13,281 nt of DNA. Origin: a virus. Its lineage: Duplodnaviria; Heunggongvirae; Uroviricota; Caudoviricetes. Made by a program: the position numbers and the translations under genes. Positions 8,448-13,281 of the stretch are shown piece by piece. The stretch covers positions 1 to 13,281 of IMG/VR virus record IMGVR_UViG_2690316028_000002. One strand, 5' to 3'. The stretch's first letter is position 1. Every line of letters begins with the position of its first letter. The notes beneath the pieces are model-generated. The model did not search any database. It saw only the letters and a list, made by a program, of their open reading frames with translations, and was not told where the DNA came from.

Positions 8448-8650
8448 ACGTAAAACCCTGCTGGCCCCCGGCGTCGTGATGTGGTGCCAACCTGAGATTC
8501 AAGGTCAGCAATATATTTTTTGAGATCGCTGACTGAAGTGGCTGTAAATTCCACTCTTCGACCGTCTTTCTGTACCGTCGCCACGCGCTTTCCCATCATC
8601 AGGTCATGTAACGCAGCGCGCGCGGCATCCAGTTCAGTCTGTGTTGCCAT
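8444..8650 (-). CDS. W: Head-tail joining / head completion protein (lambda gpW-like)
   Basis: 68-aa ORF, the same length as lambda gpW; ...[41 protein letters not shown]...[10 protein letters not shown] matches. Start overlaps the A stop. Confidence 0.94.
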
Positions 8651-10572
8651 TATTCATCTCCAGATAATGCCCGCGCGTAATCCGCCAGGGTCTTGTTATT
8701 GTTACGGCTGCCTTCTTCCTCCAGCAGGCTGGCCAGAAGTGAATCAAGATTTAGCTGCCAGCGGGATATGCTTATACGCAGCGCCGCCAGTGCATAAACA
8801 AAGCAATCGAGCGCCTCATTTCGTCGTTTTTTGCTGTCCCAGACGATCTTTTTCTTTCCGTCTACCCATTTTTCCACCTGCTCTTCAGCTGTTAGTTGTT
8901 GGGCCTCTGTTAGATCGTAGATTTCTGGGTTATTCGGGAAATGAACCGCTCCCGCCAGCGGCTCGTCTCTTTGCGCCACCAGCGTGAAACGGTTATAAAT
9001 CTGCTCTTTTGCGGTGTCTGTTCCTACCTCTGTGAGGTAAACACCATTCTTGTTACGCTTGCGTGGCATGTTCGCCACTGGCTTTCCATAAACCGACGCC
9101 CCCTTTATAGGGATCACACGAAACAGACCGTGTTTTTTTGAGCGGTTGTAGACGATGGTGGGATCAATGCCGCCAATATCCCAGCAAGTGCGGGATATAA
9201 CCATTTCGAGACCGTTCTGGCGCTTATACGTCCTGTTGATCGCTTCATCAACTCGAGCGAGAGTCGACTCATCATCATGACGACCCATAATGATAATTTT
9301 GTCGATAAGCCAGCTTTCCTCTCCCGGCCCCCATCCCCAAACACGCATTTCGTAACGGTCAAGCTGGGAGTCAATACCCGCTGTCAGATATGCCACTCGC
9401 TCCGGCACAGACGCTTCAAAGTGCTCTTTTCGTTCCGCTAAAACTTCAGCATCGGGTCGTTCACCTATTTTCGGTTCCCACGTTTCGCCCAGGGTCGTGT
9501 TAACGAAAGTTTTTCGCTTACCCGTATCACCTTTTGTTTTTATCCAGTCCTTGACGATCTGCACCCAGGTTGTGAACGGGCTATATGCGGTCCAGATGTG
9601 GAATGTAACGCTGTCAGGAGGTTCAATTTCGGTACCGGATGAAGAAAACCAGTTAAGGCCGTCTCGTGTCCAGATACCTGTTTCATCACAAATATACCTG
9701 GCCTCCAGAAATTCCAGCTCCTGTTGTTTAATCACACAGGCATTGTGTTCACAGAGGTAGTAAACGCTGGCAGGTTCTCCCGGAGACCATTTGAAGCCAA
9801 ATGGTGTCTCTTTATCACCGAATTTCAGATACTGCTCTTCCCCACAGTGTGGGCATGGAACATGGAACCGAAGAAAATGTTCAGACTCCTTAGCAGCTCT
9901 TTCTATCTGGCACGTACCTTTGACTTTCGGTGTAGATCCGCGAATGGATTTCGGCCATACAGAACCCTCAATACGCTTATCACCCAGAAAGGTGGGAGAA
10001 CCTTCTTTCTCGATGTCATCATCGAAAGCGGCGAGCTCGTCGTAGCCAGCCACATCAACTGATTTTTCACGGTAGTTTTTTGCAGCCTTACCGCCCAGGC
10101 ACCAGAAACCACGACCATTCGAGAAACGCTTCATGCTCAGCGTATTGTCCCGGTGTTTTTTACCGTACCAGGGAGCAAGCGCCAGCAACGTCGGAATATC
10201 ACGAATGGTCGGTTCTACATGAGACTTCATGAAGTTTTCAGCATCACCGTCGGTTGGTAACCATATTAGGGAGTTACGCTGTTTATGTTGGATGAAATAT
10301 GCGTAAACGCCGAGCAACATTTTTGAGTAGCCGACACGAGCCGATTTAACGACATTCACCTCGCGAATATAGTCATTACCCATCGCATTCATAATTGCAC
10401 GCTGAAATGGCAGTGTTTCCCAGCGCCCTTCCTGGTAGGCAGACTCTTTCGGGAGATAATAATTCTCATCTGCCCATTCAACTGCTGTTTGCGGTTGCGG
10501 CCGGTACAGCGAACGTAACCCCGCCCGCGCAGAGTGCTGCAGCCCCTTAACCTGACTGTTCGATATATTCAC
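8650..10572 (-). CDS. A: Terminase large subunit (lambda gpA-like; ATPase/translocase plus cos endonuclease)
   Basis: 640-aa ORF starting MNISNSQV... with high similarity to lambda gpA throughout. The start codon is GTG at 10572..10570, immediately after an in-frame TGA, so no ATG is available. 26-nt overlap with the Nu1 3' end. Confidence 0.97.
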
Positions 10573-11092
10573 TCAGCAACCCCGGTATCATTTCATCCAG
10601 CGCAGCTGCCTTGTTCATGGCCTTAATGATGTCCTTCTTGAGGAAATCAATATGTCGGTTCTCCAGCTCCGGGAAGCGCCGCTGAACCGACAGAGGTATT
10701 CCATCGAGAATGCTGGCGATTTCTCCGGCTACCCGCGACAGCACGAACGTGCAGAATGCGGTCTCCACCACTTCAGCGGACTCTTTTGCATTTTTTAATT
10801 CCTGAGCGTCAGCCTGAGCTCGCGTAAGTCGGTGTCGCTCATATTCAATCGTGCCAGGTTGAAGATCGGACTCAGAAGCGATACGGAGATCTTCAACTTC
10901 CTTCCGCAACTTTTCATTTTCTATAGCTGCATCGCGCGCACTGTACCATTCGATTGCAGCAGCAGATTCAAAGAGAACCTCATTACCTTTGCCACCACCG
11001 CGGACAACCGGCATACCTTGCTCCTGCCAGTTCTGAATCGTTCGGACGCTTACCCCGAAAATTTCGGATAAGCGTTTTTTGTTAACCTCCAT
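10547..11092 (-). CDS. Nu1: Terminase small subunit (lambda gpNu1-like; cosB-binding winged-helix N-terminus)
   Basis: 181-aa ORF, the same length as lambda Nu1; MEVNKK...IRTIQNWQEQGMPV.RGGGKGNEV... matches closely. ATG at 11092..11090 is preceded by AGGAG. Confidence 0.96.
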   Translation of the reverse strand: MEVNKKRLSEIFGVSVRTIQNWQEQGMPVVRGGGKGNEVLFESAAAIEWYSARDAAIENEKLRKEVEDLRIASESDLQPGTIEYERHRLTRAQADAQELKNAKESAEVVETAFCTFVLSRVAGEIASILDGIPLSVQRRFPELENRHIDFLKKDIIKAMNKAAALDEMIPGLLSEYIEQSG

Positions 11093-11261: not shown

Positions 11262-11285
11262 TCTGCGCGGACGCCGCCCCGTAAC
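11262..11285 (-). other. cosN-like nicking site; predicted 12-nt cohesive end 5'-GGGCGGCGTCCG-3' at 11279..11268
   Basis: The minus strand reads TTACG-GGGCGGCGTCCG-CGCAGA; the lambda junction as I recall it is TTACG-GGGCGGCGACCT-CGCGGG. Nick positions are assigned only by analogy. Confidence 0.6.
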
Positions 11286-11302
11286 AAGGCGGATCGCCGG
11301 AA

Positions 11303-11309
11303 AGGACCC
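11303..11309 (-). promoter_or_regulatory. cosQ-like element (minus-strand GGGTCCT)
   Basis: The heptamer sits inside a stretch (CCGGAAAGGACCCG) that matches the lambda right end as recalled, at similar spacing from cosN. Confidence 0.55.
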
Positions 11310-11337
11310 GCAAACGATAATAATTATCAATTGCATA

Positions 11338-12066
11338 CTATCGACGGCACTGCTGCCAGATAACACCACCGGGGAAACATTCCATCATGATGGCCGTGCG
11401 GACATAGGAAGCCAGTTCATCCATCGCTTTCTTGTCTGCTGCCATTTGCTTTGTGACATCCAGCGCCGCACATTCAGCAGCGTTTTTCAGCGCGTTTTCG
11501 ATCAACGTTTCAATGTTGGTATCAACACCAGGTTTAACTTTGAACTTATCGGCACTGACGGTTACCTTGTTCTGCGCTGGCTCATCACGCTGGATACCAA
11601 GGCTGATGTTGTAGATATTGGTCACCGGCTGAGGTGTTTCGATTGCCGCTGCGTGGATAGCACCATTTGCGATAGCGGCGTCCTTGATGAATGACACTCC
11701 ATTGCGAATAAGTTCGAAGGAGACGGTGTCACGAATGCGCTGGTCCAGCTCGTCGATTGCCTTTTGTGCAGCAGAGGTATCAATCTCAACGCCAAGCGTC
11801 ATCGAAGCGCAATATTGCTGCTCACCAAAACGCGTATTGACCAGGTGTTCAACGGCAAATTTCTGCCCTTCTGATGTCAGAAAGGTAAAGTGATTTTCTT
11901 TCTGGTATTCAGTTGCTGTGTGTCTGGTTTCAGCAAAACCAAGCTCGCGCAATTCGGCTGTGCCAGATTTGGCTGGCAGATCACCAGACAGCAACGCGCC
12001 ACGGAAAAACAGCGCATACAGAACATCCGTCGCCGCGCCGGACAACGTGATAATTTTATGACCCAT
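11338..12066 (-). CDS. Hypothetical protein, 242 aa, function unknown; cargo gene in late-operon orientation abutting cosQ
   Basis: ATG at 12066..12064 is preceded by AAGGAAA about 8 nt upstream. TAG stop at 11338..11340 lies 29 bp from cosQ. No motif I can recognise (no Walker A, no obvious catalytic signature). Similarity to the lambda right end stops at this gene. Confidence 0.75.
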   Translation of the reverse strand: MGHKIITLSGAATDVLYALFFRGALLSGDLPAKSGTAELRELGFAETRHTATEYQKENHFTFLTSEGQKFAVEHLVNTRFGEQQYCASMTLGVEIDTSAAQKAIDELDQRIRDTVSFELIRNGVSFIKDAAIANGAIHAAAIETPQPVTNIYNISLGIQRDEPAQNKVTVSADKFKVKPGVDTNIETLIENALKNAAECAALDVTKQMAADKKAMDELASYVRTAIMMECFPGGVIWQQCRR

Positions 12067-12085
12067 GATTTATTTCCTTTTAGAC

Positions 12086-12139
12086 GTGAGCCTGTCGCAC
12101 AGCAAAGCCGCCGAAAGTTAACGGTTTGCCCAGGCTCAC
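12086..12139. repeat. Perfect 9-bp inverted repeat (gtgagcctg ... caggctcac) with a 36-bp spacer, in the 5' leader of the 242-aa gene
   Basis: Arms at 12086..12094 and 12131..12139 are exact reverse complements. The spacer contains a GTTAAC palindrome. The repeat lies about 20 nt upstream of the 242-aa gene start codon. Confidence 0.8.
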
Positions 12140-12438
12140 AACTGAAAGACTTTCTACGGTGTGCGCGTGCGATGCGCGTAGAAGACTGATTTATCAACCT
12201 GTCTTTATATCAGGATTCATTACCTGACTATTTGTGGGTAAAGTTCGTAGTGCGCTGATCGTGCAAAATGATTTTAGTTGGGAACAGTTCGCAACTCTGT
12301 CCCATAAAAATCAGCATATTCCCATCTATCCCATATCCAGCGCATTGACCATCGGGATACTGAAGGGAGATTCCATCATCTCTTAGAAAGATCACCATCT
12401 CTTTTGTTTCAATTTGCATATAGCTACCTGGAGGATTT

Positions 12439-13053
12439 ATGAATACAAGGATTTTCATGGACTATTACCATGAGATTGATTTTCCATCTTTATTCGCGAG
12501 AGCAGTGGAAAGCGATGACGATGTGGGTACTACATTGCGCATTCACCTACTTTGTGAGCGCATGGTCGAAGCATGGATATGCGCATGCTGTGACTGCCAA
12601 GATCTCTTTGGAAGAGATAAAAACAAACTTTTAATCGAATGTAATACTAAAATATCCATGGCGGGAAACCTGGGAATCCCCACGGAACTTATGAAATCAC
12701 TTAAAACCATCAACTCAATGCGTAATGACCTTGCACACAATCCATCAATACAAAGCATTGCTGATTCAAGGATCCAGAGCCTGACGGATACTCTGACTGA
12801 ATACTTTAAACAGCATCCAACGGAACCCAGCATGGAAGAATCAAAACTGGGTATTTTTAACGCCGAGAATCAATTAACCGAAGAAGTTTCCTTAGATAGT
12901 GACAGTTCAAAAAACAGACTTAAGTTAATCTTGCTGTTCAGCAAGTTAATGCAGGCGTTAATGCAATTAGTTGCAGCTAATCATAATGGGCGCTGGGATA
13001 ACCAATTTAGCCAATTCGTTTACCATGTGACCATGAACGCAACAAAGAGATAA
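12439..13053 (+). CDS. Putative HEPN-domain protein (R-x4-H motif), 204 aa; AT-rich moron, candidate abortive-infection or exclusion RNase
   Basis: ATG at 12439 with GGAGG 4 nt upstream; TAA stop followed 5 nt later by a perfect hairpin. Orientation is opposite to the late operon and the gene is visibly AT-rich compared with the structural genes. The protein has ...SMRNDLAHN... (R95-x4-H100) and a Cys cluster (C48, C50, C51, C53). HEPN assignment rests on the motif only. Confidence 0.8.
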   Translation: MNTRIFMDYYHEIDFPSLFARAVESDDDVGTTLRIHLLCERMVEAWICACCDCQDLFGRDKNKLLIECNTKISMAGNLGIPTELMKSLKTINSMRNDLAHNPSIQSIADSRIQSLTDTLTEYFKQHPTEPSMEESKLGIFNAENQLTEEVSLDSDSSKNRLKLILLFSKLMQALMQLVAANHNGRWDNQFSQFVYHVTMNATKR

Positions 13054-13058
13054 ATCTA

Positions 13059-13077
13059 AGCCCGTTTTGTACGGGCT
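13059..13077. terminator. Hairpin between convergent genes (agcccgt-tttgt-acgggct), putative bidirectional terminator
   Basis: Perfect 7-bp stem with a 5-nt loop, 5 nt after the stop of the 204-aa gene and about 10 nt after the stop of the small minus-strand ORF. Flanks are moderately T-rich, more so on the minus strand. Confidence 0.5.
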
Positions 13078-13086
13078 GTTGCATTA

Positions 13087-13218
13087 TCACAGGCACTCAG
13101 TGAATGCCTGCTGTAATGCCGCGATCAGCCAATCAACAATTCTGGCTGCGTCACCTGGCGGAATGGTGAATGCCGGAAGTCTGTGCCATTTGGCTTTTGC
13201 CATCTGTTGCTCCGTCAT
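13087..13218 (-). CDS. Small hypothetical ORF (43 aa, or 38 aa from the second ATG), speculative
   Basis: Hand-translated: MTEQQMAKAKWHRLPAFTIPPGDAARIVDWLIAALQQAFTECL. Bounded upstream by an in-frame stop at 13234..13236. Weak Shine-Dalgarno. Convergent with the 204-aa gene and ends at the shared hairpin. Too short for the ORF track. Confidence 0.25.
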   Translation of the reverse strand: MTEQQMAKAKWHRLPAFTIPPGDAARIVDWLIAALQQAFTECL

Positions 13219-13281
13219 TATCCGTTGCAGGGGTTATTTTTGATTTATCCGCTCAGGGGGATATCCATTATCAAGCCCACC

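Follow-up and report, generated by a model that had tools for sequence, protein, structure and literature searches.

The gene under study lies at positions 11338-12066, on the minus strand, of a 13,281-nt stretch of tailed-phage DNA (Caudoviricetes; IMG/VR record IMGVR_UViG_2690316028_000002), the whole of which is referred to here as the window. It is a confirmed 242-codon open reading frame (ORF) with an ATG start at 12064-12066 and an AAGGA Shine-Dalgarno sequence at 12075-12079 (minus-strand sense), separated by a five-base spacer. The window represents a lambdoid siphophage in reverse: its head and tail genes, among them Nu1 (10547-11092) and A (8650-10572), are on the minus strand. The ORF has the same orientation as Nu1 and A, and as the lysis genes of the matching phage phi80. 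An earlier sequence-only reading of this DNA had described an uncharacterised gene with a good ribosome-binding site and co-orientation with the late operon, and this is borne out. The gene stops (11338-11340) 28 nt short of the cosQ heptamer (11303-11309), with the 12-nt cohesive end (11268-11279) 58 nt away. The product corresponds to phi80 PHI80_66 and is called gp66 below. Judged from its sequence, gp66 is a chimera composed of an exchangeable winged-helix-like head, a gpJ shaft and fibre segment, and a tape-measure C-terminal element.

gp66 is 99.6% identical to PHI80_66 (AFV29203.1), which occupies the same place beside cosQ and is recorded in phi80 as "hypothetical protein; ORF x171.28; similar to N15 gp59". 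From the cohesive end onward, window positions 11272-12500 share 99.7% nucleotide identity with the phi80 right end, but the left arm of the window is mEp237/N15-like rather than phi80-like. The mosaic junction falls at cos (~11272-11280), and leftward of it identity is 97% to mEp237, 90% to N15, and 89.6% to phi80. In comparisons with orthologs and paralogues, the ratio of nonsynonymous to synonymous change (pN/pS) is ~0.13 in the N-terminal 82 codons and 0.3-0.5 in the remainder, with synonymous divergence of up to 0.5-0.65. Because of the phi80 match, the 642 relatives found in databases, and the low pN/pS, the ORF is assessed as a functional gene under purifying selection and not a chance ORF.

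The 642 relatives come mostly from Citrobacter, Salmonella, Enterobacter, and E. coli prophages and carry the NCBI name "Fur-regulated protein". At 50% identity, the family falls into only 108 clusters in a collection of 1.84 billion proteins, and a one-genome-per-species GTDB set contains only 12 of its loci. It is a small family confined to Enterobacterales. The gene is also present in the genomes of the common laboratory strains DH5alpha, DH10B, TOP10, and JM83, where PGAP labels it a hypothetical protein; these copies presumably belong to the phi80dlacZ prophage. A myxobacterial draft assembly, that of Archangium violaceum Cb vi76, has a 100% identical copy on a short contig (contig00211, 5550 bp; locus L139), in all likelihood a contaminant derived from phi80 or a cloning strain of E. 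coli.

No characterised family in Pfam, NCBIfam, or PHROGs matches gp66 apart from a marginal hit to PF09327, and the PHROGs concerned are families of unknown function. The earlier view that the protein fits no known family holds for characterised families; it fails in that the protein already appears as PHROG 17079, as phi80 ORF x171.28, and under the NCBI name. The sensitive homology searches and structure prediction proposed in that reading likewise returned no characterised family, and yielded the marginal PF09327 hit, a match to the C-terminus of tape measure proteins, and a predicted fold for the head. Matches to CcdA and to metal repressors fall far under their cut-offs, and no PADLOC model for defence or anti-defence matches gp66. 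A membrane or secreted protein was considered and rejected on a hydropathy maximum of 1.28 and the lack of a signal peptide. A limited search of the literature on phi80 and Fur, x171.28, N15 gp59, DUF1983, and AsXd-1 found no account of this gene or of its expression.

The C-terminal part of gp66 consists of a long helix and a terminal element (aa 182-242; 11341-11523, minus strand), ending ...AIMMECFPGGVIWQQCRR. Its last ~33 residues (11341-11439, minus strand) match the far C-terminal end of tape measure proteins (TMPs) of the lambda type. AlphaFold2, run on gp66 with a 117-sequence alignment, predicts a helix at aa 182-230 with a predicted local distance difference test score (pLDDT) of 80-90, followed by PGG and a short helix; a single-sequence run gave a pLDDT of 31 and was useless. 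The C-terminal helix ends PGGVIW..RR, with FPGGVIWQQCRR as the C-terminus of the protein and ...MECFPGGVIWQQCRR as the tail that was compared with N15. gp66 thus has the features of a TMP C-terminus, namely an amphipathic helix, a (P/A/D)-G-G-hydrophobic-aromatic motif, and a short basic tail. In alignments of the relatives, the last ~35 residues are constant and the N-terminal domain and middle are variable. Whatever the head type, the exact terminal TMP signature is retained, through to its closing basic residues.

The first sign of this link was that a hidden Markov model (HMM) of the family also touched the final residues of the phi80 tape measure. A 34-position HMM, A7, was built only from the C-termini of the cassette family, the group of exchangeable genes that includes gp66. 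A7 matches the final 29 residues of the TMPs of N15 and mEp237 (810-838 of 838; E=5e-9, 33.8 bits). Among 4468 ORFs from all loci, its sole hits of 500 aa or longer are four HK639-type TMPs (E~1e-4), in which the matches stop 5 residues short of the C-terminus. In the whole PDB, it matches best at the C-terminal end of the F2-pyocin tape measure (25vf_5, 588-607 of 612; E=0.087), a link that PDB searches with whole-protein profiles missed. Reciprocal tblastn with a TMP tail retrieves TMP C-termini from many genera and one family member, the cassette gene of FSL SP-016. The N15 TMP ends ...AIQPGGLIWNATNRR, N15 gp59 ends ...HCRPGGIIWQATRRNR, and lambda gpH ends ...ARDEIQTQMRDGGLFSGGGR; at loci with the cassette in the tail cluster, the TMP ends ...VIQKHLKPGGMIYNFSKGR and the cassette protein ...AIRNALKPGGLLFKR.

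No Pfam model covers the C-terminal element; in the N15 TMP, Tape_meas_lam_C lies at residues 634-707. gp66 has no match to PF06791 or PF09718 at E<=1, and the N15 TMP has both (55-257 and 634-707). The possibility that gp66 is itself a tape measure protein was rejected, as it lacks TMP_2, Tape_meas_lam_C, and a length-setting helical body. In lambda, gpH is cleaved to gpH* and a C-terminal fragment, gpHC, which stays in the tail-tip lumen (PMC10721106, PMC12617516). Cryo-electron microscopy places gpH residues 818-842 (or 818-849) in that lumen as a three-helix coiled coil on the gpI plug (PMC10721106, PMC12617516), and only three of the six tape-measure C-termini engage gpI (PMC12617516). 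Lambda gpHC (gpH ~690-853) and gp66 share an amphipathic helix, an x-G-G-hydrophobic-aromatic motif, and a basic/glycine end. Unlike gpHC, gp66 is encoded by its own gene, and its binding to gpI is hypothetical.

The middle of gp66 resembles the tail-tip protein gpJ. In lambda, gpJ contains in order an FNIII domain, an alpha-helical shaft, and a beta-prism central straight fibre (PMC11101478). A predicted helix at aa 97-113 of gp66 (SAAQKAIDELDQRIRDT; 11728-11778, minus strand) is like the gpJ shaft, with the motif VE.DTS.AQKA.DELD..IR conserved in family alignments and a weak hhalign alignment of this region to lambda J 806-887. It is followed at aa 119-176 (11539-11712, minus strand) by degenerate repeats of the gpJ central straight fibre (SFIKDAAIANGAI; IYNISLGIQ...KVTVSADKFKV). 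The PF09327 (Phage_Tail_Tip, formerly DUF1983) match to aa 119-151 is marginal, at 23.3 bits against a cutoff of 22, and paralogues of gp66 score 32-34 bits, above threshold. The repeats GxVFIKDAxI and YxVKLN..GK.xxAGxxLGVE..ADRFKV follow most head types, and the corresponding motifs (the second ending ADRFxV) are common to gpJ PF09327 and the gp66 family. The family HMM matches phi80 J at 775-1098 (E 4e-16), with no alignment outside J residues 775-1127. In the PDB, family profiles match the F2-pyocin tail fibre and the J-like tip protein gp24. Whereas gpJ (~1100 aa) carries a hub, FNIII domains, and receptor-binding domains, gp66 is a free-standing protein of 242 aa with neither hub nor receptor-binding domain.

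The head of gp66 is a winged-helix-like acidic domain at aa 5-80 (11827-12054, minus strand), predicted with confidence by AlphaFold2 over aa 5-78 (pLDDT ~87). The predicted fold is MarR-like and has the elements of a winged helix, and no Pfam or NCBIfam helix-turn-helix model matches it. The head shares only its fold with MarR, PadR, and HxlR factors, with an identity of 10-20% and no family membership; unlike these regulators, it has an acidic surface and lacks the MarR dimerisation helices. Its isoelectric point (pI) is 6.0 and its net charge is -2. It is also the most strongly constrained part of the protein, as the pN/pS of ~0.13 indicates. A classical DNA-binding regulator was rejected as a candidate, since the head surface is acidic rather than basic and DNA-binding.

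Acidic stand-alone homologs of the head (pI 4.6-6.8) occur in virulent Ackermannviridae and in jumbo phages that do not have lambda-type tails. One of them is CBA120 orf185 (locus L006, 2489-2725), a 78-aa homolog encoded immediately downstream of gp23, the major capsid gene, in a member of the Ackermannviridae. Similar small proteins are present in PhiPA3, Noxifer, and RisingSun, and all are uncharacterised.

gp66 belongs to a modular family in which heads are exchanged, while the C-terminal end and, usually, a ~105-nt leader are kept. A scan of IMG/VR with an exact 24-nt leader seed found at least 120 contigs, of which 115 were analysed. The genes behind the conserved leader comprise at least five unrelated N-terminal types, together with genes that lack the family C-terminus and encode a GT2-like 485-aa protein or an HNH endonuclease. 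Type B is the winged-helix head of gp66; type A is unrelated and begins MKKTLSLKDAM; type C is FN3-like and includes N15 gp59; further types have other beta-rich domains. Type C proteins align over 224 residues to gpJ of distant siphophages. The paralogues N15 gp59 and HK639_13 have the same shaft- and fibre-like middle and the same helix-PGGxIW-basic tail, and are also late-operon genes, but their heads are FN3-like and gpJ-like rather than winged helices, and HK639_13 lies inside the tail gene cluster.

The cassette occupies two positions. The first, as in the window, is between the lysis and packaging genes; the second is between the major tail gene and the genes for the tail chaperone and tape measure. 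HK639_13, eight of the ten type C loci with enough flanking sequence, and two type B loci hold the second position. The sequence-only reading had also suspected a variable slot at the lysis-to-cos junction, and this proved right: phages whose Nu1 proteins are 94-100% identical carry either a type A or a type B cassette. Exchange and presence or absence among similar phages are as expected of a moron; the promoter and terminator of a moron are lacking, with no promoter of its own upstream and cos directly downstream. Homologs with a known morphogenetic or lysis role at this position in most lambdoid phages would have spoken against the earlier accessory-gene proposal, and none came to light: the family is rare, with the leader in 97 of 5426 E. 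coli genomes, and no member has a known role. The 224-aa protein P0089 occurs in identical form ahead of a head module of lambda type (gpE/gpD) at one locus and ahead of HK97-type modules at two others, and is found with both Nu1/gpA and HNH/Terminase_4 packaging systems. The pairing of P0089 with both head modules therefore argues against a capsid or packaging partner, and a role in capsid decoration or as a packaging accessory was rejected because the protein is not tied to one capsid type.

Other genes accompany the cassette elsewhere. In HK97-type prophages (L014, L023, L024, L013, L021), it is often followed by a 75-aa ORF (MRITVLDDDPG...), a GT2-like 485-aa gene, and a ~190-aa gene, a run that precedes the HNH, TerS, and TerL genes. 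The genes of this run may form an operon for late glycosylation, associated with the fibre-like protein. Between the lysis genes and the cassette, prophages of Salmonella and Citrobacter have small ORFs with Pfam hits to 'Sequestin' (PF21825) or 'YnfU' (PF23499) (5152-5346 in L133-L135; ~5750-5913 in L136-L138); a reverse-strand 104-aa ORF is present as well.

The structured 5' leader of the gp66 gene spans ~105 nt (12067-12183, minus strand). It is near-invariant in the contigs described above and in unrelated phage genomes, although adjacent synonymous sites are saturated (pS 0.5-0.65). A long hairpin at ~12085-12140 is predicted to clamp UCUUU (12145-12149) onto AAAGG (12076-12080) of the Shine-Dalgarno region. 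The leader folds better than shuffled sequence (z = -3.5) and has no match in Rfam; its copies are nearly invariant, which makes covariation uninformative. The hairpin is not obligatory, because some Citrobacter loci have a short leader without it. The leader may clamp translation, be a site of processing, or serve as a junction for recombination.

On the coding strand between 11000 and 13281, no sigma70-like promoter lies upstream of the gene, and the sole match is downstream, near cosQ. Terminator-like hairpins are found upstream, in the leader, and in related phages an intrinsic terminator immediately precedes the leader. Because of the missing upstream promoter and the terminators in related phages, the gene is most likely read only in the Q-antiterminated late transcript, which Q-modified polymerase would produce.

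Three further ORFs lie at or near the 5' end of the gene. The antisense PHI80_65 (99 aa; 11890-12189, plus strand), annotated in phi80, runs across the 5' end of the gp66 gene and its leader; it is probably spurious, as PGAP does not call it and it matches no family. Further upstream, a 76-aa ORF, 'x171.8' (12228-12458, minus strand; PHROG 20632), and a 204-aa ORF (12439-13053, plus strand; PHROG 5483) are divergent, with 5' ends that overlap by 20 nt. The 204-aa product has weak PADLOC matches to CARF/HEPN models (E 0.004-0.008).

The cos region (11268-11309, minus strand) was located by annotation transfer from phi80 and alignment to the lambda right end. Similarity to lambda spans cosN, cosQ, and a TGATAAT(C/T)ATTATC palindrome and breaks off a few bases at most from the stop codon, much as the sequence-only reading had described. 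The palindrome (11310-11334; core GATAATAATTATC at 11316-11328) lies between the stop codon and cosQ, 9 nt 3' of the gene, and resembles a Fur box. It has 4 of 19 mismatches in two registers, where 0.05 such sites are expected by chance, and is the best candidate in the window. It overlaps a weak sigma70-like site (11344 to 11317) that points to cos and Nu1. The palindrome beside cosQ is kept in lambda (locus L132, ~2150-2170), phi80, and mEp213, and lambda and mEp213 do not have the gene. No other Fur-box match with six or fewer mismatches is present in 11350-13281, including upstream of the gp66 ORF and of the 76-aa ORF. On sequence grounds, the position of the site does not support the "Fur-regulated" name. 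The palindrome may be a cos subsite or a genuine Fur site. We take the name to go back to a Fur titration clone, in which case titration would probably have been due to the palindrome near cosQ and not to a promoter of the gene.

The favoured interpretation, a tentative one held at rather less than even confidence, is that gp66 is a late protein addressed to the tail tip, where it would serve as a virion accessory. The protein is probably trimeric. Its C-terminal element would dock it to the partner of the tape measure, either a gpI-type plug or the gpJ hub, and docked in this way gp66 would become a minor component of the virion, carried in or on the tail tip. It may then leave with the plug and the tape measure as infection starts, which would allow a late gene to act in the next host at the very first step. 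The match to TMP C-termini, the fibre-like middle, the placement of most FN3-type paralogues between the major tail and tape measure genes, the lack of a tie to one head module, the probable late-only expression, and the low pN/pS support this interpretation. The sequence-only reading had expected an accessory protein for host interaction, exclusion, or anti-defence rather than a structural one; this expectation is not upheld, as the recognisable parts outside the N-terminal domain are all tail-tip derived and no defence or anti-defence model matches. A bolder and rather improbable version holds that gp66-type proteins are a class of tail-lumen cargo not recognised before: the portable TMP-derived peptide would address the protein to the gpI plug, and the protein would be ejected into the next host before the DNA, with its head as the delivered effector. 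On this view the exchangeable head would lie between the ultraconserved leader and the constant C-terminal address, forming a recombination cassette.

Several observations weigh against a place at the tail tip. No proteomic report of gp66 in virions was found. The tail lumen is ~3 nm wide and already occupied by the tape measure (PMC11101478), and three folded winged-helix domains may not fit within it. A free mimic of the TMP tail might just as well inhibit assembly by competing with the tape measure. The TMP tail of phi80 itself (...EMSAGGVLYSRRTQ) is much less similar to the family than is the N15/mEp237 TMP type, and cassette and TMP tails do not always co-vary (exceptions are loci L067 and L096). 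AlphaFold2 confidence is low for the middle of gp66 (aa 114-179), where the model is unreliable. In phiKO2 gp59 and the 155-aa mEp versions, the fibre module is largely or wholly absent.

The same TMP-tail and gpJ-like homologies would apply if gp66 were a transient tail-assembly factor or competitor that stays outside the final virion and binds the gpJ-gpI-gpL initiator through its TMP-like helix, an explanation we consider unlikely though worth weighing. Such a factor could serve the initiator as a chaperone or cap until the tape measure arrives, or it could poison tail assembly in relatives that co-infect. The engagement of gpI by half of the lambda tape-measure C-termini (PMC12617516) is consistent with it, and a cassette that differs between near-identical phages fits an arms race. 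However, a self-encoded competitor of the tape measure would cut the yield of its own phage, and the co-variation with TMP tails that a specific competitor should show is only partial. It is likewise doubtful, at a comparable level, that gp66 is an accessory with no part in the tail, such as a host-takeover, anti-defence, or exclusion protein whose acidic head binds a host protein. The fibre-like and helical parts would then serve only for oligomerisation, and the tail-like sequence would reflect origin and not function. The hypervariable slot, the swappable and most constrained head, and the stand-alone head homologs in phages without lambda-type tails all suit this explanation. The exact TMP signature kept across head types would not be needed for mere oligomerisation, however, and late-only expression is ill-suited to anti-defence, a function usually required early; models for such functions in PADLOC, Pfam, and NCBIfam gave no match.

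The remaining explanations are far less probable. Regulation by Fur, with expression from the prophage under iron limitation, is suggested by the names in the NCBI and phi80 annotation and by the good palindrome close to the stop codon, and is very improbable: the site is 3' of the gene beside cosQ and conserved in gene-less lambda, and neither a Fur box nor a sigma70-like promoter lies upstream of gp66 or the 76-aa ORF. A 2026 study of a phi80 lysogen, moreover, did not link phage production to iron uptake. The chance that gp66 is a winged-helix DNA-binding regulator or an accessory of cos and packaging is similarly slim. The MarR-like predicted fold, the adjoining cos site, and a helix-rich C-terminus superficially like small-terminase architecture favour it, but the head is acidic and matches no helix-turn-helix family model, an identical protein occurs with two different packaging systems, and paralogues have FN3-like domains in place of the winged helix.

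The gp66 gene has stood in annotations for decades, under a name that is probably misleading, and common cloning strains such as DH5alpha, DH10B, and TOP10 carry it. The gene itself is already known; within a limited literature search, its domain make-up, the TMP-tail homology, the head swapping, and the conserved leader are new. The combination of a TMP-anchor-like end with a middle derived from the central fibre provides the first testable hypothesis for the gp66 family and suggests a general way for siphophages to attach or load exchangeable domains at the tail tip. Should gp66 be no more than an assembly factor, the conserved leader and exchangeable heads still mark a hotspot of diversification in the late operons of lambdoid phages. 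Delivery of the protein on infection would, if it occurs, give lambda-like phages a way to bring effectors into the cell before any gene expression.

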